Part shown: piece by piece, positions 3,754 through 19,837 of the stretch
How positions within the stretch are numbered: the stretch's first letter is position 1
How the letters are laid out: the number at the start of each line of letters is the position of its first letter
DNA from: an uncultured Nitrospinota bacterium
GTDB lineage: Bacteria > Nitrospinota > Nitrospinia > CAJXCL01
DNA: 19,837 nt
Direction of reading: 5' to 3'
Assembly (NCBI GenBank): GCA_964394335.1
Contig: CAYMVZ010000042.1
Location: 1 to 19,837, forward strand
Notes under the pieces: model-generated
The model's database searches: none
What the model was told of the DNA's origin: nothing
What the model saw: only the letters and a program-made list of their open reading frames with translations
Program-made: the position numbers and the translations under genes

Positions 3754-3769
3754 TGGCATTCCTATTGCT
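3754..3769 (+). promoter_or_regulatory. sigma-54 (-24/-12) promoter for glnK-amtB
   Basis: TGGCAT-tccta-TTGCT matches the consensus TGGCAC-N5-TTGCW. GG lies at 3755-3756 and GC at 3767-3768, with the correct 10-nt spacing. It sits about 60 nt upstream of the glnK start. A possible enhancer-like inverted element tgcaccc...gtgca lies at 3689-3714. Confidence 0.55.
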
Positions 3770-3793: not shown

Positions 3794-4168
<375 letters not shown>

Positions 4169-4261: not shown

Positions 4262-5563
4262 ATGAAGCACAAAAAAGTAGGTTTTGTTTTATTAATTATT
4301 TTAAGTTTATTCATGTTGTCCGGTAATGTTTGGGCTGAAGAAGCGCCCAAACTTGATACTGGTGATACAGCCTGGATGTTGACTTCCACAATCCTTGTGC
4401 TGTTCATGACAATCCCCGGTTTGTCGCTGTTTTATGCCGGGCTGGTGCGTACCAAGAATGTGTTATCGGTGATGATGCAATGTTTTGCCATTACCGCCCT
4501 GATGACAATCTTGTGGACACTTTTTGGTTACAGCATTGCTTTTGGTGAGGGGGGCGCCCTTTGGGGCGGTCTGGGTAAGGCATTTCTCAAAGGTATAGGG
4601 GTAGACACTTTAAGCGGTACGATTCCTGAGACAGTGTTTGTCTGCTTCCAGATGACCTTTGCTATCATCACACCTGCGCTGATTGTTGGAGCTTTTGCTG
4701 AGCGCATGAAGTTTTCCGCTGTTCTGATTTTCATGAGCTTGTGGTTACTCATCGTTTATGCCCCGATTTGCCACTGGGTATGGGGTGGAGGCTGGCTTGG
4801 TAGTTGGGGTGTGCTGGATTTTGCCGGCGGCACTGTGGTGCATATTAATGCCGGTATTGCAGCCCTGGTTCTCTGTCTCGTTCTTGGAAAGCGTAAAGGT
4901 TTTCCGGAGACGGCAATGCCGCCTCATAATCTTGTTTTCACCGTGGTTGGCGCCTCAATGCTGTGGGTTGGCTGGTTTGGTTTTAATGCGGGCAGTGAAT
5001 TAGCGGCTGATGGCGTTGCCGGCATGGCCATGGCTGTGACTCAGATTGCCACCGCTGCTGCGGCTTTGGCCTGGATGTTCGCGGAATGGATTGGCCATGG
5101 CAAACCCAGTGCGTTGGGAATTGCTACAGGCGCTGTAGCAGGTCTGGTTGCAATTACACCTGCATCAGGTTCAGTTGGTCCCATGGGAGCTATCGCCATT
5201 GGTGCTGCATCTGGCGTGGGATGCTTTTTCGCCGCCACCACTATCAAGCGTGCGATGGGTTATGACGATTCCCTGGATGCCTTTGGGGTACATGGAGTCG
5301 GTGGTGCCATCGGTGCGATCCTGACAGGCATCTTCTCGGCTAAATCCCTGGGTGGAAGTGGCCTGGGCGACGGAAATGCGGGTATCGCCGCTCAACTGGT
5401 AGCCCAGTCTGTTGGTGTGATCGCAACGATCATTTACTCAGGCATTGGAAGCTTTATTATCTTGAAGATCACAGATGCTATTGTCGGTCTCAGGGTATCT
5501 GAAGAAGAAGAGGTTACCGGTCTGGACCTCAGCCTGCATGACGAAAAAGGCTACAATTTCTAA
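4262..5563 (+). CDS. amtB: ammonium transporter, Amt/AmtB family
   Basis: 433 aa with a signal peptide (MKHKKVGFVLLIILSLFMLSGNVWA). It has the Amt signature DFAGGTVVHINAG, 11 TM-like segments, and a GGAGGG RBS. The coding sequence is markedly GC-rich (about 53-60% in sampled 60-nt lines) relative to its flanks. Confidence 0.9.
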   Translation: MKHKKVGFVLLIILSLFMLSGNVWAEEAPKLDTGDTAWMLTSTILVLFMTIPGLSLFYAGLVRTKNVLSVMMQCFAITALMTILWTLFGYSIAFGEGGALWGGLGKAFLKGIGVDTLSGTIPETVFVCFQMTFAIITPALIVGAFAERMKFSAVLIFMSLWLLIVYAPICHWVWGGGWLGSWGVLDFAGGTVVHINAGIAALVLCLVLGKRKGFPETAMPPHNLVFTVVGASMLWVGWFGFNAGSELAADGVAGMAMAVTQIATAAAALAWMFAEWIGHGKPSALGIATGAVAGLVAITPASGSVGPMGAIAIGAASGVGCFFAATTIKRAMGYDDSLDAFGVHGVGGAIGAILTGIFSAKSLGGSGLGDGNAGIAAQLVAQSVGVIATIIYSGIGSFIILKITDAIVGLRVSEEEEVTGLDLSLHDEKGYNF

Positions 5564-5642
5564 AGCTATAGCGTTTTAGTTTGGACGGTTTAACCTGTAG
5601 AATGTCAAAGTTAATGACACTCCCCACCTGGCGGAGTCTGCA

Positions 5643-5681
5643 ATATGGGACACACCTTTATGGTGTGTCCCATATTTTTAT
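5643..5681 (+). terminator. rho-independent terminator after amtB
   Basis: A perfect 14-bp inverted repeat: atatgggacacacc (5643-5656), a 5-nt loop, then ggtgtgtcccatat (5662-5675), followed by TTTTTA. Confidence 0.7.
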
Positions 5682-5691
5682 TACCTAAATC

Positions 5692-5722
5692 TTGCATGAT
5701 GAATTTTGGTATTCATAATGCG
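5692..5722 (+). promoter_or_regulatory. candidate glnA promoter region with overlapping sigma-70-like and sigma-54-like elements
   Basis: The sigma-70-like element is TTGCAT (5692-5697), a 16-nt spacer, then CATAAT (5714-5719). The overlapping sigma-54-like element is TGGTAT-N5-ATGCG, with GG at 5708-5709 and GC at 5720-5721 at the correct spacing but with weak flanks. Sequence inspection only. Confidence 0.35.
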
Positions 5723-5836: not shown

Positions 5837-7249
5837 ATGACACCAAAGGAGGTATTGGCATTTGCGAAAAAAAACAAGGCTGTCATGCTTGACGTCAGAT
5901 TTATGGATTTTCTTGGGTTATGGCAGCACTTCTCAGTCCCTGTTTCTGAATTGGATGAAAGTGTTTTTGAGGATGGATACGGATTTGACGGTTCCAGCAT
6001 CAGAGGCTGGCAGCCCATTCATGCCAGTGACATGCTGGTTATTCCTGATCCGGCTACAGCAGTTATGGATCCCTTTACACAGCACCCGACCCTTACCATG
6101 ATCTGCAATATTGTAGACCCAATCACAAAAGAAAAATACTCCAGGGATCCAAGAAATATTTCACAGAAGGCTGAAGCTTATCTGAAATCCACCGGGATCG
6201 CGGATACTGCTTATTTTGGTCCTGAGGCAGAGTTTTTTATTTTTGATGATATAAGATTCGACTCGGCAGAGCAGCACAGCTTTTATCATATAGATTCTGT
6301 AGAAGCACAGTGGAACACAGGCCGTGAGGAAAACCCGAACCTGGGGTATAAACCAAGATATAAAGAAGGTTACTTCCCTTGCCCTCCTTTTGATACTTTG
6401 CAGGATATCAGGACGGAAATGGTCCTGGTTATGGAACAGATCGGAATGAGCGTGGAGTGTCAGCATCACGAGGTTGCAACAGCCGGTCAGGGAGAAATAG
6501 ATATGAAATTCTCCCCCCTGACAAAAATGGGGGACAACCTAATGTGGTATAAACACATTGTTAAAAACGTAGCGAAAAGACATAATAAAACAGTTACATT
6601 TATGCCAAAGCCGATCTGGAATGACAATGGCTCAGGTATGCACACCCACCAGAGTCTTTGGAAAGGGAACAAACCTCTTTTTGCCGGGAGCAAATACGGT
6701 GGGTTAAGTGATACTGCTTTACATTATATCGGTGGTGTCTTAAAACATGCTTCGGCTTTATGTGCTTTTAGCAATCCAACAACCAACTCATACAAAAGGT
6801 TGGTACCTGGTTTTGAAGCGCCGGTTAACCTGGCTTATTCCAGCCGAAACAGGAGCGCCTGCGTAAGAATACCGATGTATTCTCCAAGTCCAAAAGCCAA
6901 GAGGGCGGAATTGAGATTTCCAGATCCTTCCTGTAATGGATATATGGCCTTTTCCGCTATGCTTATGGCCGGGCTGGACGGAATTGAAAATAAAATCGAT
7001 CCGGGAGATCCATTGGATAAAGATATTTACGCGCTCGGACCTGAAGAATTGGCCGCTGTTCCAAAAGTTCCGGGATCCTTAGAAGAAGCGCTGGTTGCCC
7101 TGGAAAAAGATAATGAATTTTTGTTGAAGGGAGATGTCTTTACCCAGGACGCAATCGACATGTGGCTGGAATATAAAAGGGAAAATGAAATTAATGCGAT
7201 GGCATTAAGACCACATCCTTTTGAATTTGAGCTTTATTATGATGTCTAA
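5837..7249 (+). CDS. glnA: glutamine synthetase type I
   Basis: 470 aa with an AGGAGGG RBS 9 nt upstream. The GS-I motifs [18 protein letters not shown] and [15 protein letters not shown] are present. A conserved Tyr in [11 protein letters not shown] corresponds to the adenylylation site of E. coli GS. Confidence 0.93.
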
Positions 7250-7277
7250 TTTAAACGCTTAATAATAAAAAGTCAAA

Positions 7278-7310
7278 AGCCCCCTGATGTTCAGGGGGCT
7301 TTTTTTGTTT
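7278..7310 (+). terminator. rho-independent terminator after glnA
   Basis: A 10-bp GC-rich stem: agccccctga (7278-7287), loop tgt, then tcagggggct (7291-7300), followed by TTTTTTGTTTTT. Confidence 0.85.
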
Positions 7311-7472: not shown

Positions 7473-7497
7473 ATGCCCGATGGAAGCACTCGGGCAT
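7473..7497 (+). repeat. REP-like hairpin, variant member of the dispersed family (atgcccga-N9-tcgggcat)
   Basis: atgcccga tggaagcac tcgggcat has the same architecture as the attcccga-taggaacac-tcgggaat copies elsewhere in the window. Confidence 0.6.
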
Positions 7498-7504
7498 GAC
7501 AAAA

Positions 7505-7625
7505 AAGTGATGCGTTGAGGTATGGTAAAAAAGGGGGAACACTCTGGTATGGCAAAAGAGCGTTGCGCTAGGGCATGAACAAAAGAGTGGTGCGTTAGAG
7601 TATGGTAAAAGAGCGTTGCATTCCC
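7505..7625 (+). repeat. degenerate tandem repeats of about 27 bp (4-5 units)
   Basis: The units are gtgatgcgttgaggtatggtaaaaaag, ctctggtatggcaaaagagcgttgcg, ggcatgaacaaaagagtggtgcgttag and agtatggtaaaagagcgttgca. All share the (g)gtatggtaaaag and agcgttgc(g/a) cores. Confidence 0.5.
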
Positions 7626-7743
7626 GCTTGCTCCCGGCATGTCATTCTCGCATGCTTTAAGCGGGAATCCAGACATAAAACGAGTAAATGTCATCACTTC
7701 AAAGATAAGGGTATGTCAAATTAAAAATGAAATAGAAGAGAAG

Positions 7744-7819: not shown

Positions 7820-8842
7820 TTAAAACACGTAGGTCATTTCAAAAGCAAAAGTATCATTATTATCAGTCACACTGCCATCTGCCTTTGTAAAAACATTTTG
7901 ATCGGAAGAATCGTGGCGGTATTCAATAAGCGCTCCGAACCCTTCACCAATTACAAATGTGGGAGCAACGGTAATGGCCTGCTGGGTATTATTGGCTGTT
8001 CCTCCTAATCGAGCGCCATCCTCATCGTCAAAGTAATCATACCTGACTGTAATTCCACCCCAATCCGCGTAGTCATAATGGCCCATCACGAGAAAACCAA
8101 ACCAGTCCGCATCTGTACCGGTTGTTGAGGCCAGGTCCTCATTTCCAAAGTTAAATTCCAATCCGACTGTTAGTTTAGGAATCATGGTTATAGTTCCATC
8201 GATATCAAAAACCGTCATGTTTTCACCGGCTACTGCGCTGTCATCTCCTGAAATGGCTGAAAAACCCAGATTAATATCTTTCATAGGGGTTATTCCGATC
8301 CTGCCACCAATCGTCTTGTTTTTGTTCGTGTCCGGATTATTGTCCCACCCATTTACAACATAAGCGCTGATATCAATCATTTCGCCAAGAGCTCCGGATG
8401 CCATAAGTCCTGTTAAGTTTGTCGGCAAACCACTGTTAAATACCAGGGCGTGAGAAAATTGATACATGTCAGGAGCGTCCAAGAGTTCAAATCCTATAGG
8501 AGCGTTAAATTTTCCAAATGTAAATGTAACCCCACTTCCGACAGGTGCTGTCAGGGTTAAATAGCCCTGTTCTATGATAGCATCGGCTGTTTCCGTTCCT
8601 CCTCCATTTGGAGTGTGGTTTAAATCAAACCGCAAAGACGCCCAGTCTTTGATTTCTTTCGTAATGTCAATTTCAACCTGGTCCAATCCGAATGTATTTG
8701 TATCCGCGTTATCATCTACAACATAACTGGAATCCACAAAGCCGCTCATATCAAATCCTAACGCCTCGGCGGCATAAGCTTTACCATAGCTTATTGAAAA
8801 CATAAAAATTGCTACAACTAAACCACTAATTAATTTCTTCAT
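7820..8842 (-). CDS. outer-membrane beta-barrel, porin-like protein
   Basis: 340 aa with a signal peptide cleavable after AYA (MKKLISGLVVAIFMFSISYGKAYA-AE). Amphipathic beta-strand patterning and a C-terminal aromatic residue (EMTYVF) are typical of OM beta-barrels. A GGAGG RBS lies 6 nt upstream on the minus strand. Confidence 0.6.
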   Translation of the reverse strand: MKKLISGLVVAIFMFSISYGKAYAAEALGFDMSGFVDSSYVVDDNADTNTFGLDQVEIDITKEIKDWASLRFDLNHTPNGGGTETADAIIEQGYLTLTAPVGSGVTFTFGKFNAPIGFELLDAPDMYQFSHALVFNSGLPTNLTGLMASGALGEMIDISAYVVNGWDNNPDTNKNKTIGGRIGITPMKDINLGFSAISGDDSAVAGENMTVFDIDGTITMIPKLTVGLEFNFGNEDLASTTGTDADWFGFLVMGHYDYADWGGITVRYDYFDDEDGARLGGTANNTQQAITVAPTFVIGEGFGALIEYRHDSSDQNVFTKADGSVTDNNDTFAFEMTYVF

Positions 8843-9431
8843 TCACGTCCTCCTTCTCAAATTTAATTACTAAATTATTGACCTGTTTAAGAATCTTAAC
8901 TGAAAATACTTTCCTATCACCCCCTTTTATAGATATTTTAAACTAACTACTTTAGATTATTAAGAAATCGATTTTTGTAAACAGTAATTGAAAAATAAGC
9001 AGTAATTATAAAATAAAGATTAAGAGATTACAACTATAGTTTTAATTTTATCGTTCCTGGATTTTGCTTCGCCCCGCTGAGCGTGGCTTCGCAGATTCGC
9101 CCATAAAAAAGTACCTGCGAAGACAACTTGATATTATAACCAAAGCTCATTTAAATGCAACTTATATACCAGGTTTTTTAAAATAGTTGTCAGAATTTAT
9201 TTTATTGATAATAAAGGATTTAAATCTTGAAATAATGTTTGACCAGTTTTAAAAGCAGGCGATTCATTGTTTGCTGCTACAAATTTAAGCATGGAAAACA
9301 ATTTCTGCTTAATACTTATGCAAATCCAAAAAGAACTTTCTATTTACAAAAATTAACCTGTGGTCCCGGAGAAAACATTTCCTGCATACAATTCAAACAT
9401 TTGAAAAACATTTTTCACTCCTTGTTTTTTT

Positions 9432-9447
9432 TGGCACGACAATTGTA
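9432..9447 (+). promoter_or_regulatory. sigma-54 (-24/-12) promoter for the ANTAR response-regulator gene
   Basis: tTGGCACGacaaTTGTA gives TGGCACG as a perfect -24 element (9432-9438) and TTGT at the -12 position, with correct 10-nt GG-to-G spacing. It is about 50 nt upstream of the TTG start. An adjacent 7-bp inverted repeat tgaaaaa-ca-tttttca lies at 9402-9417. Confidence 0.55.
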
Positions 9448-9498
9448 ATTATTTTAGAAGCTGGTTTGTTTTGCGAAAATTAATATAAAGGAGTTAAA

Positions 9499-10083
9499 TT
9501 GAAAACAATTAAAACTACACGTTTACTTATTGCAGATGATCAGAGTTTTTCAAGAGATGCTTTAAAAGACGCATTAATTGAAAAAGGTTTTGATATAGCG
9601 GGGGAAGCAGCTACCGGTAAAGAGGCAATTAAATTAAATAAAAAATTGAAGCCTGATTTGATTTTTATGGACGTAAAAATGCCGGAATTAAACGGGATCG
9701 AAGCATCTCATGAGATTAACTCTAAAAACCCTGTTCCGATAATACTTTTAACTGTAAAAGATGACCGAAGTACAATAGAAAGAGCCAAGTCAGCGGGAGT
9801 AATGGCATATCTTGTTAAACCTTTTAATAAAAAAGAATTGGTTCCCAATATAGAGATTGCCATTAAACGTTTTCATGAGTTTAAAAAAGTGAAAAATGAG
9901 AATGCTGATTTAAAAGCAAAACTAAATGCAAGAAAACTCATAGAAAAGGCAAAAGGAATTCTCATGGAAAAGCATAATATTAATGAACAGGAGGCATTTA
10001 GAATGGTTCAAAAGGCTGCAATGGATAAACATACTTCAATGAAAGAGATTGCAGAGAGCATAATTATGACTGCTGATTTATAG
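9499..10083 (+). CDS. response regulator with receiver domain plus ANTAR RNA-binding antiterminator domain (AmiR/NasT-like)
   Basis: 194 aa with a TTG start and an AAGGAG RBS 5 nt upstream. The receiver domain is intact: DD (IADDQ), phospho-Asp (FMDVKMP), Thr (LLTV) and Lys (LVKPF) are present. The C-terminal KLIEKAKGILMEKHNINEQEAFRMVQKAAMDKHTSMKEIAESII matches the ANTAR helical domain. Confidence 0.85.
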   Translation: MKTIKTTRLLIADDQSFSRDALKDALIEKGFDIAGEAATGKEAIKLNKKLKPDLIFMDVKMPELNGIEASHEINSKNPVPIILLTVKDDRSTIERAKSAGVMAYLVKPFNKKELVPNIEIAIKRFHEFKKVKNENADLKAKLNARKLIEKAKGILMEKHNINEQEAFRMVQKAAMDKHTSMKEIAESIIMTADL

Positions 10084-10124
10084 TACACATACTGTTCAAA
10101 GAAGAGCAGGAATAGAGAAAAAGC

Positions 10125-10180
10125 AAAGGCGCTTTTTAATTGGATCCACTTAAGTGGAGCAATGAAAGCGCCTTTTTTTT
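10125..10180 (+). terminator. strong two-tier intrinsic terminator between the ANTAR regulator gene and amt2
   Basis: The outer stem pairs aaaggcgcttt (10125-10135) with aaagcgccttt (10165-10175). It encloses an inner perfect palindrome tccacttaagtgga (10145-10158) and is followed by T8 (10173-10180). Confidence 0.75.
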
Positions 10181-10185
10181 AGTGT

Positions 10186-10417
10186 TCAGGAATGACATGT
10201 CGGGAATGCCCGTATAGTAAGACGTATGCATTTCAAAATGACAACGCATATGTATGCCAGATTGATATTTTGCACTGTTTTGTCATTCCCAACTTGATTG
10301 GGAATCCAGATAAAAGAATTCCTGGATTCTAACTAAATCTTGTCCTCAACCTGGATTCCCGCTAAGTGCATGCGGGAATGACATGTGGGGAACATGCGGG
10401 ACTGATATGTCAGGAGC
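10186..10417 (+). repeat. cluster of REP/MITE-like repeats (GGGAATGACATGT cores, gtcattccc/gggaatcc inverted units, 67-bp unit at 10351-10417)
   Basis: Contains caggaatgacatgtcgggaatgcccg, gtcattcccaacttgattgggaat, gaatccag...ctggattc, attcccgc-taagtgcat-gcgggaat, and gcgggaatgacatgtgggga followed by acatgcgggactgatatgtcagga. The 67-bp unit recurs at 16641-16709 at about 84% identity. Confidence 0.7.
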
Positions 10418-10442
10418 TTCAATTATTTAGGTCATTAAAAAA

Positions 10443-11744
10443 ATGAAAATTTTATTTTTCTTAATACTGAGTGTTTTTCTCATTTCAGATGATAGTTTTG
10501 CCGCAAGACTTCTTACGTCTGAGGACGTTCAGAGGAATCTCAATATAGTATGGATCATTTTTGCGGCGATCCTTATTTTTTTGATGAAGGCAGGATTCGC
10601 TATGGTGGAGATTGGGTTTACCCGTTCTAAAAACGCGGTAAATGCCCTCATGAAAAATTTTGTTGATTTCGCCATAAGCGCTGTAACGTTTTGGGCAATC
10701 GGTTTTGGATTTATGTTCGGCACAACCAATGGGATATTCGGCACAGATGGGTTTTATCTCCAGGACTACATAAAAAATCTTGATCCGTGGCTTTTCGCTT
10801 TTTGGATGTTCCAGGTCGTTTTTGTTTCTTCAACGGCTGCGATTGTTTCCGGAGCTATGGCCGAACGTACCCGGTTTGTTGCCAGTCTAATGTTTACTCT
10901 ACTGCTGACTGCTTTTATTTACCCGATTTTTGGAAGCTGGGTTTGGGGCGGACTCTATCATGGTAGCGGCTGGTTGGAAAGACTGGGATTTATTGATTTT
11001 GCCGGCTCTACTGTGATCCATGCCATAGGAGGTTGGGCAGGACTTGCTGGAACAATCGTTCTCGGACCCAGGCTGGGAAAATTCAGTGAGAAAGGAGTGC
11101 TAAAACCTATTTTAGGTCATAACCTCCCTCTCGCAGCTCTTGGGACTTTGATTTTGTGGTTTGGCTGGTATGGGTTTAATGCGGGAAACACGTTGGAAGG
11201 CAATGAAAAAATAGGGTTAATTATCATCAACACCACACTTGGTGGAGCGGCCGGAGCACTTGCAGGGATGACAACTATATGGCTTATTGCAGGAAAACCG
11301 GATGCAGGCATGACTCTTAATGGAGCATTAGCCGGGCTGGTAGGAATTACTGCCGGTTGCGTTTATGTGTCGCCTTTCTGGGCAATTGTGATAGGCCTTG
11401 TTGCCGGTTGTCTTGTAGTCTTTTCCGTTAAGTTTTTCGACAGTCTGAAAATTGATGATCCTGTTGGCGCTATCTCTGTGCATGGGGTTTGCGGTGTATG
11501 GGGAACTTTAGCGGTTGGTCTCTTTAAAACCGGAGAATTATTTAATTTAAAAAATCTTAGCGTACAATTTTTAGGTTCTATAGTAGCTTTTTTTTGGTCA
11601 TTTTTTGTGGCTTATGCGTTTTTTAAATTCATCGATTATTTAGTGGGTCTTAGGGTTTCTGCTGAGGAAGAGTTTCGAGGGTTGGACTATTCTGAACATG
11701 CGGCAGGAGCTTACCCGGATTTTCACGTTACCTCTATTAACTGA
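10443..11744 (+). CDS. amt: ammonium transporter, Amt family (second, AT-rich paralogue)
   Basis: 433 aa with a signal peptide (MKILFFLILSVFLISDDSFA) and the Amt signature DFAGSTVIHAIGGWAGL. It has about 11 TM segments. Its codon usage is AT-rich, unlike amtB at 4262-5563. Confidence 0.88.
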   Translation: MKILFFLILSVFLISDDSFAARLLTSEDVQRNLNIVWIIFAAILIFLMKAGFAMVEIGFTRSKNAVNALMKNFVDFAISAVTFWAIGFGFMFGTTNGIFGTDGFYLQDYIKNLDPWLFAFWMFQVVFVSSTAAIVSGAMAERTRFVASLMFTLLLTAFIYPIFGSWVWGGLYHGSGWLERLGFIDFAGSTVIHAIGGWAGLAGTIVLGPRLGKFSEKGVLKPILGHNLPLAALGTLILWFGWYGFNAGNTLEGNEKIGLIIINTTLGGAAGALAGMTTIWLIAGKPDAGMTLNGALAGLVGITAGCVYVSPFWAIVIGLVAGCLVVFSVKFFDSLKIDDPVGAISVHGVCGVWGTLAVGLFKTGELFNLKNLSVQFLGSIVAFFWSFFVAYAFFKFIDYLVGLRVSAEEEFRGLDYSEHAAGAYPDFHVTSIN

Positions 11745-11764: not shown

Positions 11765-12307
11765 ATGAAATCTTTGCCGGAAGAAGATTCAGTTCGCAGG
11801 CTGCCGAGGCCTGCCAATAAGAAGCAGATTATTATTGCTGTCCTCGCAACGGCTTTTGTTTTGATTATTTTTTATAGCTTTACGTCAGTCTCTTATTATT
11901 ATTCATCGACAAATTATTTTTGCTCGACTCAATGTCATGAAATGGTGCAGCCCTATCAGGAGTATCTTTTGTCCAGCCATTATGACAGCAGGAAAGGTGT
12001 TGTAGCGGATTGCGCCGACTGTCATTTGCCCCCCGGGTTAGTAGATAAGTGGTTTGTAAAAACAAAACAGGGAGTCCATGACTCTCTGGTTCATTTTTTT
12101 GGTGATCCGGAAAATCTGGATCATAATGCGCTTAAAATTTCTGCAAGAAAAAATATTCATCCCGGCGCTTGTATGAAGTGTCATAAAAACCTGTTTCCTT
12201 CGGACTTGCCCCGGGGCGGTTTCAAGGCTCATAAAGCCTTTGAAAATCAGGAAGCTAATAATTGTGTGGATTGCCATGTAAACCTGGTGCATGTTTCAGC
12301 CGGTTAA
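11765..12307 (+). CDS. NapC/NirT/NrfH-family membrane-anchored tetrahaem cytochrome c (quinol dehydrogenase-like)
   Basis: 180 aa with an N-terminal TM anchor (IIIAVLATAFVLIIFYSF). It has four haem-binding motifs: CSTQCHEM (CX3CH, non-canonical), CADCH, CMKCH and CVDCH. It starts 21 nt after the amt2 stop, so the two are probably co-transcribed. Confidence 0.82.
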   Translation: MKSLPEEDSVRRLPRPANKKQIIIAVLATAFVLIIFYSFTSVSYYYSSTNYFCSTQCHEMVQPYQEYLLSSHYDSRKGVVADCADCHLPPGLVDKWFVKTKQGVHDSLVHFFGDPENLDHNALKISARKNIHPGACMKCHKNLFPSDLPRGGFKAHKAFENQEANNCVDCHVNLVHVSAG

Positions 12308-12360
12308 ATGAAAATTGCGGAGTTCAGACTAAGGAAGGCGGATTGTTGCTAACAATGTCC

Positions 12361-12510
12361 GTAAGTTCTCAATAAGTCGGGGTAAGCCAAGGTCCATAAG
12401 TTTGTCATTCCCGAATGTTCCCCGATTAGAGAGTTCGAGGACAAGCTTTATCGGGAATCCAGGAATCAGCTTGACTACTAGATTCCCGATAGGAACGCTC
12501 GGGAATGACA
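12361..12510 (+). repeat. composite REP/MITE-like element with a nested 75-bp insertion (family shared with 15122-15200)
   Basis: gtaagttctcaataagtcggggtaagccaaggtccataagtttgtcattcccga, then an insert at 12415-12489 ending in attcccga, then taggaacgctcgggaatgaca. Removing the insert reconstitutes the hairpin gtcattcccga-N9-tcgggaatgac seen intact at 15169-15199. Confidence 0.75.
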
Positions 12511-12635
12511 AGATAGGGTATAGCCAATAGTGACCTGGCCCTGAGAACAGGTTTTTTGTTTTATAATAAAATTATACTTTACACAGAAGATTCCCAGCAG
12601 CTTGCTTCGGGGAGCTTCAATTGGAGGTTATTTTA

Positions 12636-13934
12636 ATGGAAAACTCTTGTTATAAAAAAAGTAATTTTGCGGGAAGTCCTTCGCAATATTCAATTCGCAA
12701 TATTCAATTCTCAATTTTGCCTGCATTATTCCTCTGCTTATTAGCCTCCATTCTGTTTTCACAAGTGGCTCATGCGGCAAGAACAGAGGGAGAAAGGGAA
12801 ATTAGCAAAAAATGTATCCTTTGTCATCAGGAAATTTCCCCTGGGATCGTGAACGACTGGGAAAAAAGTAATCATGCGAGAAGCGACATTACTTGCATAG
12901 ACTGTCACCGGGCCGACCCGACAGATGCGGATGCATGGAAGCACGAAGGTACTTATATTTCCACTATCGTCAGCCCCAGGGATTGTTCCAAATGCCATCC
13001 CAAAGCAGTGAAAGAGTTTGTTGATTCCAAACATTCCGGAGCCGCTACCTTTTTAAAAGCTGAAGCAGGGGATAGGCATAAAGATAATATTTTGGCATAT
13101 ACAATTGAGGGAGCTGAAGCTGCTGTTGTGGGGTGCGAGAAATGCCACGGTAATGTTGTAAAAGTCAAAAACGGAAAATTTGAGCCAGGCTCCTGGCCGA
13201 ACGGTGGAATTGGCAGGGTAAACCCTGATGGAAGCCGTGGTTCCTGCACCGCCTGTCATACCCGGCATGTCTTTTCCGTTGCTGAGGCCAGAAAGCCGGA
13301 GACTTGCGGTACCTGCCACATGGGGCCCGACCACCCGCATATAGAGATATATCTGGAGTCCAAGCATGGGGTCATTTATTCCAGTGAAAAAGAGAAGTGG
13401 GATTTTGACATTCCGGCAAATTCCTGGGATGTCAAACATTTTCGAGCTCCTACCTGCGCGACATGCCATATGTCCGGCATTGGCAATTTGGAGCCGACTC
13501 ACGATGTTGGAAAGCGTCTTTCATGGGTCTTAAGGTCTCCCCTTTCCATTAAAACCAACGGCTGGCAGGTCAAAAGAGAAGAAATGAAAAAAGTCTGCCT
13601 TTCCTGTCATTCAGATGGATGGGCGGAGGGATATTATTTTCAACTTGATAATGCGATAGCTCTTTATAATGAAGAATATTATAAGCCGGTTAGAAAGGCA
13701 CTGGATGAATTATACGCACTTGGCATATTAACGAAGCAATCATTTGACGAAGAAATTGAGTTCACATGGTTTGAATATTGGCACCATGAAGGGAGAAGAG
13801 CAAGGATGGGTGCAGCCATGATGGGGCCGGATTTTGCCCAGTGGCATGGTTTTTATGAACTGGCTAAAAACCGCCTTAAACTTTTGAATGAGATAAAAAA
13901 AATGAAAAACAAAAAATTGAACTATAAGGAATAA
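12636..13934 (+). CDS. periplasmic octahaem cytochrome c (HAO/OTR-like multihaem family), putative nitrite/hydroxylamine oxidoreductase
   Basis: Eight CXXCH motifs: CILCH, CIDCH, CSKCH, CEKCH, CTACH, CGTCH, CATCH and CLSCH. A signal peptide is present (hydrophobic core ILPALFLCLLASILF, cleavage near AHA-A). The preferred start is the ATG at 12636 with GGAGG 8 nt upstream; the ORF track's TTG at 12621 has no RBS. Confidence 0.8.
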   Translation: MENSCYKKSNFAGSPSQYSIRNIQFSILPALFLCLLASILFSQVAHAARTEGEREISKKCILCHQEISPGIVNDWEKSNHARSDITCIDCHRADPTDADAWKHEGTYISTIVSPRDCSKCHPKAVKEFVDSKHSGAATFLKAEAGDRHKDNILAYTIEGAEAAVVGCEKCHGNVVKVKNGKFEPGSWPNGGIGRVNPDGSRGSCTACHTRHVFSVAEARKPETCGTCHMGPDHPHIEIYLESKHGVIYSSEKEKWDFDIPANSWDVKHFRAPTCATCHMSGIGNLEPTHDVGKRLSWVLRSPLSIKTNGWQVKREEMKKVCLSCHSDGWAEGYYFQLDNAIALYNEEYYKPVRKALDELYALGILTKQSFDEEIEFTWFEYWHHEGRRARMGAAMMGPDFAQWHGFYELAKNRLKLLNEIKKMKNKKLNYKE

Positions 13935-13937
13935 CCT

Positions 13938-15047
13938 ATGACACCGGCACTAAACAGTGAAGAAGCTTACAAAAATGTTTTGAGAGGGTTGTGGAACAAT
14001 CGCAGCGGTACTTATGAAGAATGGGAAACTCTCATTAAGGAACTCCCTCATTATGGAATGACTGAAGAGAAAGCGCGGGCCTTGGAACCAGATGTTAAAG
14101 AATCTCTCGGCGTTGTCGTTCCCTGGTCTATATTCGATAAACCCGGGTTTGAAACTTCAAAAGAAAAGATTGCAAAACGCTTCCTTTTCTTTTCGCTGAG
14201 CTTTTGTTTTTTTTTAGTAATGCTCTGGATTTACCAGAGAGTTGAACCGAAGGAAACTCAGGCCATGCACCCGGTGTTTGCTGAATCCTCTTTAAAGGTA
14301 GAAAAGCAAAGAAGTAATAAAACATTTTTGCCCTTTGACAAAATGGTGGAAATTAAAGGAGGAAACTTTCTGATGGGAAGCAGTGATGGCGACTTCGATG
14401 AAGAGCCGATTCACAGAGTTCATTTACTTCCTTTCCAATTAGCTGGATATGAGGTGACCTACAGTCAATTCCAGGAATTTATTAAAGAAAATCCTCATTG
14501 GGAAAAAGGAAAACCTGGAATGAACGAAGTGGATTTGAATTACCTGAAAGACTGGAATGGAACAGACTTCCCGAAAGGCAGGGAAAACTTCCCTGTTGTT
14601 TATGTAAGCTGGTTTGCTGCTTCAGCCTATGCGTACTGGTTTGGAAGGCGGCTGCCCACAGAATCAGAATGGGAGTATGCCGCAAGAGGAGGATTGAGGG
14701 GAATGCCATATCCCTGGGGAAAAGTATCCGAATTCTGGATCGCAAACATTAAAACAGAGGGTTTAATAAATATGCCCAAACCTGTCGGCAATTACAGCAT
14801 GAACGGGTTTAGAATTTTTGACATGGCGGGAAACGTCAGAGAATGGACAGCCGATGGTTATTCCCTTTATAATCCAGCAGAACAAAGAAATCCTCAAATG
14901 ACTACGAATCAAAGGTATAAAGTTGTCAGGGGAGGGTCCTGGGAAACTTTTGGGAGGGACTCCAGGGTATCGAAAAGGTGGAGGGAACGCCCAAATCATT
15001 GCGGGCCTGATATAGGTTTTCGCGTTGCAACCGATATTTATAGCTGA
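13938..15047 (+). CDS. FGE-sulfatase/SUMF1-domain membrane protein (NirV-like)
   Basis: 369 aa. The ATG is 3 nt after the octahaem stop, with the AAGGA RBS overlapping that stop, indicating translational coupling. It has an N-terminal cytoplasmic region, one TM helix (FLFFSLSFCFFLVMLWIY), and a C-terminal FGE/SUMF1 domain (GGNFLMGS...PVVYVSWFAASAYAYWFGRRLPTESEWEYAARGG...GNVREW...VVRGGSW...GFRVA). Confidence 0.8.
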   Translation: MTPALNSEEAYKNVLRGLWNNRSGTYEEWETLIKELPHYGMTEEKARALEPDVKESLGVVVPWSIFDKPGFETSKEKIAKRFLFFSLSFCFFLVMLWIYQRVEPKETQAMHPVFAESSLKVEKQRSNKTFLPFDKMVEIKGGNFLMGSSDGDFDEEPIHRVHLLPFQLAGYEVTYSQFQEFIKENPHWEKGKPGMNEVDLNYLKDWNGTDFPKGRENFPVVYVSWFAASAYAYWFGRRLPTESEWEYAARGGLRGMPYPWGKVSEFWIANIKTEGLINMPKPVGNYSMNGFRIFDMAGNVREWTADGYSLYNPAEQRNPQMTTNQRYKVVRGGSWETFGRDSRVSKRWRERPNHCGPDIGFRVATDIYS

Positions 15048-15121: not shown

Positions 15122-15200
15122 GTAAGTTCTCAATAACAAAGTCGGGGTAAGCCAGGGTCCCTATGTTTGTCATTCCCGATAGGAACACTCGGGAATGACA
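15122..15200 (+). repeat. REP/MITE-like element, intact copy (gtaagttctcaataa...gtcattcccga-taggaacac-tcgggaatgac)
   Basis: 79 bp, near-identical to the flanks of the 12361-12510 copy but without the 75-bp insert. It contains a perfect 11-bp-stem hairpin at 15169-15199. Confidence 0.75.
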
Positions 15201-16570: not shown

Positions 16571-16748
16571 CGGGAATGACCGTCTTCCTCCTCTGTCATG
16601 CCCGAGTGTTCCTATCGGGCATCTATATTCACAACTTGGTCTGGATTCCCGATAAATGCATTCTGGAATGACATGTGGGGAGCATTCGGGATTGACATGC
16701 TGGGAGTACGGGAATGACATGTTCCTGGGGCGGGAGTGATATTGTGGA
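16571..16748 (+). repeat. cluster of REP/MITE-like repeats (inverted-orientation hairpin 16598-16622; 67-bp unit 16641-16709; GGGAATGACATGT cores)
   Basis: cgggaatgac...gtcatgcccg, then atgcccga-gtgttccta-tcgggcat (the reverse-complement orientation of the family hairpin), then ctggattcccgataaatgcattctggaatgacatgtggggagcattcgggattgacatgctgggagtac, then gggaatgacatgttcctggggcggg. Confidence 0.7.
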
Positions 16749-16994: not shown

Positions 16995-19837
16995 TTATAG
17001 TTTACTTTTCCCAAAACCCCCTCCTCCGGGTGTTTTAATGATAATGGAGTCACCTTTTTTTACATCTTTAACCACTCTGTGAGGCAGTTCCACAATCTCT
17101 CCGTTTGTTTTTTTCAAAAGATTGACCCCTTTTTTTCCCGGCTTACCGTCTGCCAGGCCATAGGGCGCATAGACCCTTCGTTCGGATATTATAGAAATTT
17201 TAGCAGGTTTTAAAAACTTTAATTCTCTAATTGTTCCGTCTCCTCCCGCAAAACGACCTTTGCCGCCCGAGCCCTTTCTTAAAACAAATTTCTCAAGCCT
17301 TACTCCGGGATGCCTCATTTCCAATATTTCCGGATCTGTGATCCTGGTGTTTGTCATATGTACCTGTATACCGGAAGTACCGGGACAGCCGTCTGAGGCG
17401 CCGGAACCACCGGCAATGGTTTCATAATAGGGAGTCTCTCCTTCAACTTGAAAGAGCAGGTTATTCATTGTGCCCTGTGATGCAGCCGCTGCTTTGAGCG
17501 CTCCCAGGAGGACATCCGTTATCCTCTGCGAAGTTTCCACATTTCCTGATGCAACCGGCAAAGGGTAAACAGGACTCAGGATGGAGTCATCAGGAATGAC
17601 TATCCTAATTGGCTGCAGGCATCCGCTGTTTAATGGAATGTCCGAATCTGTTAAAGCCCTGAGAACATAAAGTACCGCGGAGCGTGTGACAGATATGGGG
17701 GTATTTAGATTATCATTTGAGTGCCCCGGCCCTGTGCCTGTAAAATCTATTTCAGCGTTGACTGTTTTCGGCGGATTAATCCCCCCCTTGATAACAACCT
17801 TTACTTTTAATAGGGTTCCATCATCAAGATGGTCTTCAAAGGCTGCTTCAAAAGGGTCGCCTGTTTTAAGGAATTGAGCGAGAGCCTGTTTTACCGAATA
17901 TGCAGCATTCTCCTTAATAAATCCCATATAATCACGAGCAGTATCCCATCCGTAAAGAGCGATGGTTTTTTTGAGTTCATGTACTCCTTTATTACAGGAA
18001 GCTATCTGGGCTTTAAGATCGGATATTCGCTCTTCCATGTTTCTTACCGGGTGTTTATGGGTTGATAGGATTTGCCTCAGTTCTTCTTCTCTTAATATGC
18101 CGTCTCGCACAAGAAGAAACCCGTCTATTAAGATGCCCTCTTCATCAATATGTTCCGCCGCGGGAGGCATAGACCCGGGAGTTATTCCGCCAATGTCCGC
18201 ATGGTGCCCTCTTGCAACGGTAAAGAAAACAATCTCATCGTTTTGGGAAAAGACCGGGCATACCACGTTCAAATCCGGCAGATGAGACCCTCCATGATAA
18301 GGGTTGTTGGAAAGGTAAATATCGCCTTGCTTGATACTCCCCTTTTCGCTTTTAATAACTGCTTTTACCGTGTCCGCCATTGAACCAAGGTGTACAGGCA
18401 TGTGGGGCGCGTTTGCAACAAGGTCTCCTGTGCCGTCAAAGACAGCGCAGGAGAAATCCAGCCTTTCTTTGATGTTCACCGAGTGGGCTGTGTTTCTAAG
18501 GGTATGCCCCATTTCAGTAGCAATACCCATAAAAAGATTGTTAAAAACCTCAAGCAAAACCGGGTCAGGTTTACCATTTTTATTGGGGTTGTTACTCTCG
18601 CTTCCAGGCTCCTGCCTGATAAGGGGGAGCATTTTTTTTACAACAATAACTCCATTTTGTTCTGCTTCAGCATCAAACCCGGGGTCAATTACTAAAGTAG
18701 AATACCTGTCAACAACAAAAGCCGGTCCTTTAACTTTTGTTTTTGGTGAGATGTTTTCTCTCAAAGACAGAGGCGCATCTACAAAACCATTGGAATAATA
18801 AATTTTCCGAATTTTCTCAGGAATACTCTTGTTCCTTAGTTTCAGTTCGGGAACAATATGCGATGTATTAAAAAAATCTCCTTTTTCTTTAGCCTCTATT
18901 CGCAAATTAACCGCTTCAACAGGTTTATTTTCAGGGTAGAAACCAAAGATCCTTTCATGCTGCTTTTTGAATGATTCGAGCACATCTTCATAGTTAGAAC
19001 ATTCTACAGTTAAAAAAGCACCAGTCCCTTCATGGCGCAAATCAATTTCTCTATTTATTAAAAAGTCTTCTTTTTTATTATTTTTTTCTTTGATTAATCT
19101 TTCTTCCATTTTATCGAACGAAGATAAAAGTTTTTTATGATTTTCTCTATTGTAAATGCAGAGCACGCTCATACTTGATTTTTTTGTTGGTTTCGAAAGT
19201 CCTATGCCGTATGCGGACATGACGCCGCCTAATGGATGAAAGATTACTTTCCCCATTCCAAGCAGGGACGCCACTTCACAGGCGTGCTGTCCACCGGCTC
19301 CACCGAAACAGACCAGGGCATAATCCCGGACATCATAACCTTTTGAGACGGATATCTCCTTTATCGCCATTGCCATCTTTTCATTGGCAATCCTGATAAA
19401 GCCAAGTGCTGCTTGCCGGGGAGAGTAATTTCGTAGAGTTCCAATATTTATTTTTTCCGTAAGGCGCTGAAATTTCTCTTTAACAATATCCTCATTCAGG
19501 GCTGAGAGCCTGTCTGAGCCAAAGGTTTGAGGGAAATGCTCCGGCGAGATCCTGCCGGTCAGTAAATTCGCGTCTGTAATTGTAAGCGGCCCTCCAAATC
19601 CATAACAGGCAGGTCCAGGGTTCGCGCCTGCGGATTCAGGCCCTACTCTCATCCTTTGCCCGTCGAACCACAGGACCGAACCGCCGCCCGCTGCCACTGT
19701 TGAAATGTTTAACATCTCCACCTGAAACTCAATGCCGCCGATGATCTTTTCATAAACTTTTCCCAGTTTTCCTTTGTATCGAGACACGTCGGTTGAAGTT
19801 CCTCCCATATCAAATCCGACAGCGCCCTTGAGACCCA
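16995..19837 (-). CDS. fused hydantoinase A/B (HyuA-HyuB) family protein, 5-oxoprolinase/N-methylhydantoinase-like; 5' end lies outside the window
   Basis: The hydantoinase-A motif DMGGTSTDV is present, followed by a HyuB-like C-terminal region. The minus-strand frame stays open to the window edge (...[17 protein letters not shown]), so the ATG at 19808 is internal and the gene is partial. Confidence 0.85.

Follow-up and report, generated by a model that had tools for sequence, protein, structure and literature searches.

In a stretch of 19,837 nucleotides from an uncultured Nitrospinota bacterium (GenBank assembly GCA_964394335.1, contig CAYMVZ010000042.1), here called the window, a gene for a response regulator with a receiver (REC) and an ANTAR domain is followed by two hexaloop hairpins, the second of which overlaps a strong intrinsic terminator in front of the ammonium transporter gene amt2. 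Judging from the sequence, we consider it quite probable that the locus controls nitrogen genes in two layers, as a module of the GnfR/EutV type, in which the regulator probably decides whether transcription enters an operon of ammonium transporter and cytochrome genes. An earlier note on this DNA, made by a model from the letters alone, had described a sigma-54-driven ANTAR regulator and had proposed that its own terminator was a candidate antitermination switch. The elements of the putative switch, in their order along the window, are as follows.

9432-9447, plus strand: putative sigma-54-type -24/-12 promoter, TGGCAC-GACAA-TTGTA, with a non-canonical GT at -12
9499-10083, plus strand: gene for the REC+ANTAR regulator, 194 amino acids, TTG start
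10092-10109, plus strand: first hairpin (P1), CUGUUC-[AAAGAA]-GAGCAG, 6-bp stem
10118-10137, plus strand: second hairpin (P2, the antiterminator), AAAAAGC-[AAAGGC]-GCUUUUU, 7-bp stem
10125-10180, plus strand: intrinsic terminator, basal stem 10125-10137 with 10164-10172, apical hairpin 10145-10158, T8 at 10173-10180
10183-10420, plus strand: insertion of GGGAATGAC / GTCATTCCC palindromic units, resembling repetitive extragenic palindromes or miniature inverted-repeat transposable elements (REP/MITE-like)
10443-11744, plus strand: amt2, ammonium transporter, the first gene behind the terminator

Domain content, motif anatomy, the exclusivity of P2 and terminator, conservation and uniqueness in the window were all computed here. 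Both strands of the window were searched for pairs of hairpins with A-x-x-G-x-x hexaloops, and one case was outstanding, at 10092-10137; the earlier note had suggested looking for two such stem-loops, and they are indeed present, the second one overlapping the terminator. P1 starts 8 nt after the stop codon of the regulator gene, both hexaloops have A at position 1 and G at position 4, and the linker between the hairpins measures 8 nt when P2 is drawn with 7 bp or 10 nt when it is drawn with 5 bp. In dinucleotide-shuffled windows, a T-run preceded by a dual hexaloop whose stems have 5 bp or more would turn up only 0.018 times per window. The segment 10125-10137 serves twice, once in P2 (loop and 3' arm) and once as the 5' arm of the terminator, so that the two structures are mutually exclusive. 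The terminator, whose strength and two-tier shape had been pointed out in the earlier note, consists of a basal stem of 12 bp, an apical stem of 5 bp and the T8 tract, with a folding energy of -26.7 kcal/mol (z = -5.6). When folded alone, 10089-10140 forms exactly P1 and P2 (minimum free energy of -13.2 kcal/mol, 76% of the ensemble), and once the downstream arm is included, the terminator outcompetes them. Given these energies (-26.7 versus -13.2 kcal/mol), termination would be the default and a protein would be needed to hold P2, and the modelled folding is the behaviour expected for a protein-dependent antiterminator.

To score the motif, a covariance model of P1, linker and P2 (R1) was built from the sites themselves. 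With this model, the window site reached 74 bits and the next best match in the window 11 bits, leaving exactly one site; the leaders of PII-amt1, glnA and the octahaem cytochrome gene gave nothing above 11 bits. Over 69 kb of sequence, the eight sites scored 61 to 76 bits and all else 16.3 bits or less. Rfam 15 gave no match at the gathering threshold and matches at chance level only at E values up to 10; a match to GmglnB1_5p_UTR was dismissed, as it lies on the wrong strand and reaches 16 bits versus 54. A further dual-hexaloop candidate on the minus strand (9405-9370) was rejected for its short stems (4 bp), its location upstream of the sigma-54-like promoter of the minus strand (9171-9156), its coincidence with a conserved DNA palindrome of the promoter region (TTCAAACATTTGAA) and the lack of an R1 score.

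Orthologous loci were compared, given here with the identity of the regulator protein to that of the window: L087 (90%), L167 (88%), L168 (79%), L169 and L175 to L177 (61%) and L170 (60%). In every one of them, the ANTAR gene is followed by CCUGUUC-AAUGAA-GAGCAGG, 8 to 11 nt of linker, AGC-AAAGGC-GCU and a terminator with a run of five to nine T. The sequences of P1, P2 and the terminator base are near-invariant down to 60% protein identity, and what varies between loci is the distance to the stop codon (8 to about 80 nt), the apex of the terminator and the spacer to the next gene. Loop 1 is AAAGAA in the window and AAUGAA or AAUGCA in the relatives, loop 2 is AAAGGC (AACGGC in one site), and A1 and G4 of both loops are invariant in 8/8 sites, as is the P2 core GCAAAGGCGC among the 3' sites. 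The P1 stem tolerates the exchanges U-G/C-G/U-A and C-G/U-A among the eight sites, 95% of the cells are paired in the motif alignment versus 37 to 58% in slid registers, and the terminator keeps its basal stem under a variable apex in which four pairs show compensatory changes.

The genes around the site were also informative. An amt gene lies 3' of the site wherever the contig continues (L087, L168 and L170). The other contigs stop early, 160 nt past the ANTAR stop codon in L167 and about 215 nt past it in L169 and L175 to L177; the end of L167 coincides with the start of a GCGGGAATGAC repeat, which fits a repeat-induced assembly break, and the end of L169 has no such motif. In L169 and L175, the upstream neighbourhood is different (hopanoid/carotenoid genes), and promoter, gene and site are kept together as a block. 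L170 has a sigma-54-like promoter 246 nt upstream of the ANTAR gene and, between the two, a second full copy of P1, P2 and terminator (L170:4866-4960), which implies that in this lineage the regulator would also gate its own synthesis in a positive autoregulation. Two more distant loci, L171 (56% identity) and L179 (50% identity), have no motif after the ANTAR gene, and the layout with a 3' site is therefore confined to the Nitrospinota clade. The ANTAR gene of L179 adjoins a kinase gene (GAF-GAF-HisKA_2), an arrangement that we take to be PdtaS/PdtaR-like.

The regulator itself fits the proposed role. Its gene is preceded by a ribosome-binding site (AAGGAG at 9485-9490), and Pfam assigns to the product a Response_reg domain (PF00072, 96 bits) and an ANTAR domain (PF03861, 76.4 bits against a cut-off of 27.3, residues 136 to 189). 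Residues D13, D58 and T85 are invariant among 16 homologues and K107 is at least 90% conserved, so that the receiver, as far as the alignment tells, retains all phospho-acceptor residues; here, the ANTAR regulator with conserved phospho-receiver of the earlier note was borne out. Close homologues are named "response regulator NasT" by JGI, and those at 79% identity carry the name Nitrospinota. Identical copies occur on contigs from TARA and other marine metagenomes, with the gene order of the window. L087 was found by searching metagenome contigs with peptide patterns from the receiver domain (the other matches were unrelated response regulators), and a profile search of genome contigs with the 16-sequence alignment gave, among the matches listed, only distant actinobacterial and other ANTAR regulators. 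The absence of a kinase claimed in the earlier note also held, with no histidine-kinase domain in the ten window open reading frames (ORFs) scanned against Pfam; the ORFs at 151-723 and 16995-19808 were outside the scan. The latter (937 amino acids) corresponds to a hydantoinase/oxoprolinase in a matching contig and the former (190 amino acids) is TPR-like by eye.

The promoter-like site lies 52 nt upstream of the TTG start. The relaxed sigma-54 -24/-12 pattern has three matches in the window versus 0.19 expected, and TGGCAY-N5-TTGTA is found upstream of the regulator gene in 6/6 orthologous loci (the window, L087 and L167 to L170). The earlier note had reported a near-consensus promoter with a spacing of N4; the site and its conservation stand, the spacing is the canonical N5, and the -12 element has GT (9444-9445) for the canonical GC. 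This TTGTA is kept in 6/6 loci, and the other two window sites have GC. The conserved deviation may tune a basal or activator-independent expression of the regulator.

From this arrangement we infer that the promoter depends on sigma-54 and an activator, that the regulator is phosphorylated and binds the RNA, that transcription reads through and how far the operon extends; together, these would work in the following way. Under nitrogen limitation, an activator of the NtrC type would presumably switch on the promoter at 9432-9447 and with it the regulator transcript, which by default would stop at the 10125-10180 terminator, and the regulator alone would be made. A kinase whose gene lies elsewhere would phosphorylate the regulator on D58, and the regulator would then dimerise and bind the P1 (10092-10109) and P2 (10118-10137) hexaloops in the nascent RNA. 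With P2 held closed, GGCGCUUUUU, the 5' arm of the terminator, would be sequestered, and transcription would read through into amt2 and the NrfH-like, octahaem HAO-like and FGE-domain genes. The outcome would be a feed-forward AND gate in which promoter activity and regulator activity are both needed. The earlier note had placed the read-through either at this terminator or at hairpins of the leader behind it; motif overlap and conservation point to the terminator, and the leader hairpins can be set aside. Its link between NtrC-type, sigma-54 control and RNA-level control is supported in silico, though not as a novelty, given the precedent of Geobacter (PMC2995071).

The genes that would follow amt2 in the gated operon are these.

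11765-12307, plus strand: NrfH/NapC-type tetrahaem cytochrome
12621-13934, plus strand: octahaem HAO-family cytochrome, 8 CxxCH motifs
13938-15047, plus strand: FGE-sulfatase-domain protein

The remainder of the gated operon is probably 11765-15047, its co-transcription with amt2 being suggested by the common strand and the short gaps. The 313-nt gap between the NrfH-like and the octahaem gene (12308-12620) contains a further copy of the intergenic repeat described below. The order amt2, NrfH-like, HAO-like and FGE-domain gene is the same in L001 to L004, and these three genes are kept together behind amt2. For the octahaem cytochrome, the nearest solved structure is 4qo5 ("hypothetical multiheme protein"), with hydroxylamine oxidoreductases next. 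The three genes may form an assimilatory module that takes nitrite or hydroxylamine to ammonium.

The stretch between the terminator and amt2 had been described in the earlier note as a hairpin-rich leader of 260 bp. It is strongly folded (10183-10420, z = -5.3), and by its copies elsewhere it appears to be a REP/MITE-like insertion rather than a conserved part of the switch. Copies of the repeat are found in other intergenic regions (7492-7649, 12404-12509, 15169-15199 and 16572-16718), and the repeat unit, with one mismatch at most, has 23 matches in the window versus 4.5 expected, 8/8 exact copies being intergenic. At the position of the spacer, the repeat is absent in L087 and L170, has a different form in L168 and is found in L167 only in the last bases of the contig. 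A second conserved regulatory RNA in 10183-10420 was rejected, since this is a dispersed repeat family missing from orthologous loci. The family is built on GTCATTCCCG...CGGGAATGAC, with a perfect hairpin at 15169-15199 and a stretch at 10188-10382 in this spacer, and a longer common unit (…AGTCGGGGTAAGCCARGGTCC-N-TA-N-GTTTGTCATTCCCGA) can be seen at about 12368-12413 and 15140-15180.

As an alternative, the regulator gene could be monocistronic and the hairpin no more than its constitutive terminator, with an amt2 promoter in 10183-10442 and the real targets of the regulator elsewhere in the genome. The terminator is very strong and 260 nt separate it from amt2 here, in which simple consensus scans, known to miss some promoter types, could have overlooked a start site. 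Yet these scans found no sigma-70-like or sigma-54-like promoter match on the plus strand of 10180-10442, in line with the earlier remark that amt2 has no obvious promoter of its own, and what fills the 260-nt spacer is a mobile repeat rather than a conserved promoter region. The T-run of L087 is only about 60 nt away from the amt start, leaving little room for an independent amt promoter. Furthermore, a terminator could do without P1 and the 5' arm of P2, both of which stay conserved to 60% protein identity while the sequence around them diverges, and we regard this explanation as very improbable. We see as quite improbable a role in autoregulation rather than gating, with the regulator binding P1 and P2 at the 3' end of the mRNA that encodes it and so setting the stability of this mRNA or the synthesis of the regulator. 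The site is located within the 3' untranslated region of the regulator gene, and the extra copy in the 5' leader of the L170 regulator gene indicates that autoregulation exists in the clade; against this, P2 competes with a terminator stem, which is the arrangement of antitermination, an amt gene comes next on the same strand wherever the contig continues, and known ANTAR sites of such anatomy work by read-through. Finally, high sequence conservation with few compensatory changes would also be found if the conserved 50 nt acted at the DNA level, for instance as an operator or recombination site, or encoded a small RNA that has nothing to do with ANTAR. The anatomy, however, agrees with the ANTAR RNA consensus at each point, the element is always linked to the ANTAR gene, even with the different upstream neighbourhood of L169 and L175, and no Rfam family matches, which makes this extremely improbable.

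Several points nevertheless weigh against an antitermination switch of the GnfR/EutV type. All support for it is computational. Covariation is thin, with one pair showing a double change (C-G to U-A) and a score reached by 19/500 shuffles; this weakness arises from the near invariance of the motif, and the structure is therefore supported by conservation and by agreement with the published consensus. Rfam holds no ANTAR-target family, and the motif was scored by our own model R1 instead. The -12 element has GT and not GC, making sigma-54 dependence uncertain, the cognate kinase is not among the ten window ORFs scanned, and an unrecognised promoter may be present within the 240-nt repeat element of this genome.

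Among known systems, the closest is that of Geobacter sulfurreducens, where the coupling of sigma-54 and ANTAR control was demonstrated for GnfL/GnfM and GnfK/GnfR (Ueki & Lovley 2010, PMC2995071). There, gnfR (REC-ANTAR) has an RpoN promoter activated by the enhancer-binding protein GnfM, its kinase gene is unlinked, and phosphorylated GnfR binds CAGGCAANGGCGCC, overlapping the terminators of nifH, nifEN and glnK-amtB (PMC2995071). Our locus likewise has an RpoN-type promoter before a REC+ANTAR gene and no adjacent kinase gene, its 10-nt P2 core (GCAANGGCGC) is identical to the core of the GnfR site, and the window sequence AAAGCAAAGGCGCU agrees with 10/13 specified positions of CAGGCAANGGCGCC. 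In contrast, the Geobacter terminators are in the 5' leaders of separate sigma-54 operons (nifH, nifEN, glnK-amtB), whereas the single site of the window is at the 3' end of the regulator gene, with one promoter for regulator and target; the host here is a non-diazotrophic marine nitrite oxidiser, and the cargo is amt and the NrfH/HAO-like cytochrome pair. A related site, AAGGCAAAGGCGCC with a terminator, was found in L173 (8455-8510) and L178 (4660-4760), whose regulators are 51 to 50% identical. These two loci belong to metagenome-assembled genomes of Thermodesulfobacteriota/Deltaproteobacteria and have the order ANTAR, GATase, porin/unknown, PII, amt and nirB; their AAGGCAAAGGCGCC lies within this cluster and is a nearly exact Geobacter GnfR consensus, and L173 has GGCAC-N5-TTGCA upstream of the porin gene (5475-5490).

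The eut sites of Enterococcus faecalis require A1 and G4 of the hexaloop, as found by mutagenesis, and have a P2 that overlaps the terminator (Ramesh et al. 2012, PMC3369931). Their linkers between P1 and P2 measure 5 to 12 nt, those of 3 or 14 nt being inactive, and the ANTAR RNAs predicted in several phyla include some upstream of genes for ammonium transporters, PII and glutamine/glutamate synthases (PMC3369931). The site described here shares with EutV/EutW the A1/G4 hexaloops, a linker within 5 to 12 nt and a P2 overlapping an intrinsic terminator, and one of the eut terminators precedes eutA. This gene is presumably located just downstream of the regulator genes eutVW, in the same order of regulator, gate and structural genes as here. 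The differences are the signal (ethanolamine/adenosylcobalamin for eut versus presumably nitrogen status here), the adjacent kinase of eut and its promoter, which is not sigma-54. Along these lines, NasS/NasT, NasR and AmiC/AmiR have in common with our regulator an ANTAR output domain that acts on nitrogen-assimilation genes via a leader terminator. For NasT, NasR and AmiR, control comes from a partner protein or from a NIT domain, and they are not known to depend on phosphorylation. In the window there is no nasS- or amiC-like gene, and the receiver keeps its phospho-acceptor residues. A literature search on ANTAR in Nitrospina gave nothing relevant, its results being dominated by "Antarctic".

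Thus, the ANTAR mechanism and its coupling to sigma-54 are already known, and the understanding of that mechanism is unchanged by this locus; what differs here is the host phylum, the cargo and the 3' placement of the site. The locus extends the coupling known from Geobacter to another phylum and offers a compact natural AND-gate layout; it also supplies a testable regulatory element some 90 nt long, for which amt2, the NrfH-like gene and the HAO-like octahaem cytochrome are the candidate regulon. In the ocean, nitrite is oxidised mainly by Nitrospinota. To our knowledge, the control of nitrogen assimilation in this phylum is essentially unstudied. We suggest tentatively, holding it possible but rather short of probable, that marine Nitrospinota have compressed the two-operon cascade of Geobacter into a self-gated unit (sigma-54 promoter, regulator, its own RNA target and cargo), to which L170 adds a second gate, and that the cargo lets a nitrite oxidiser reduce nitrite to ammonium for assimilation. 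If this were true, an ANTAR switch would set the split of nitrite between energy and nitrogen source in a globally important nitrifier.

The rest of the window (G+C content of 41%) has the gene content of a nitrogen-assimilation neighbourhood, with the following features.

3830-4168: PII gene
4262-5563: amt1
5837-7249: glnA
7820-8842, minus strand: BBP2 porin gene
9275-9291 and 9306-9322: two 17-bp TGC-N11-GCA boxes, 31 bp apart, candidate NtrC-type activator site

Two further sigma-54-like sites suggest that most of the window belongs to a single sigma-54 nitrogen regulon. They are located upstream of PII-amt1 (TGGCAT-N5-TTGCT, 3754-3769, plus strand) and of the porin gene (TGGTAT-N5-TTGCA, 9171-9156, minus strand), and a weaker -24/-12-like site (TGGTAT-N5-ATGCG, at about 5698-5713) lies upstream of glnA. 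The porin and ANTAR genes have divergent sigma-54-like promoters, and the boxes at 9275-9322 lie in between, perhaps shared by both; these boxes are a candidate upstream activator site for an enhancer-binding protein of the NtrC type, a gene for which was absent from the window. Across the window, L087, L167, L168 and L169, 9/10 TGC-N11-GCA boxes are retained, in a pattern of low information. Behind amt1 there is a clean intrinsic terminator (GGGACACACC-TTTA-TGGTGTGTCCC followed by a T-rich stretch, 5640-5680), and glnA is followed by a bidirectional terminator of 13 bp (7275-7303). On the minus strand, 827-2233 encodes a TPR protein of 468 amino acids, with TPR families only among the 25 of 30 Pfam matches listed; it is not a kinase, and its N-terminal part of about 150 residues appears receiver-like by eye (KKIVIVSGD...).

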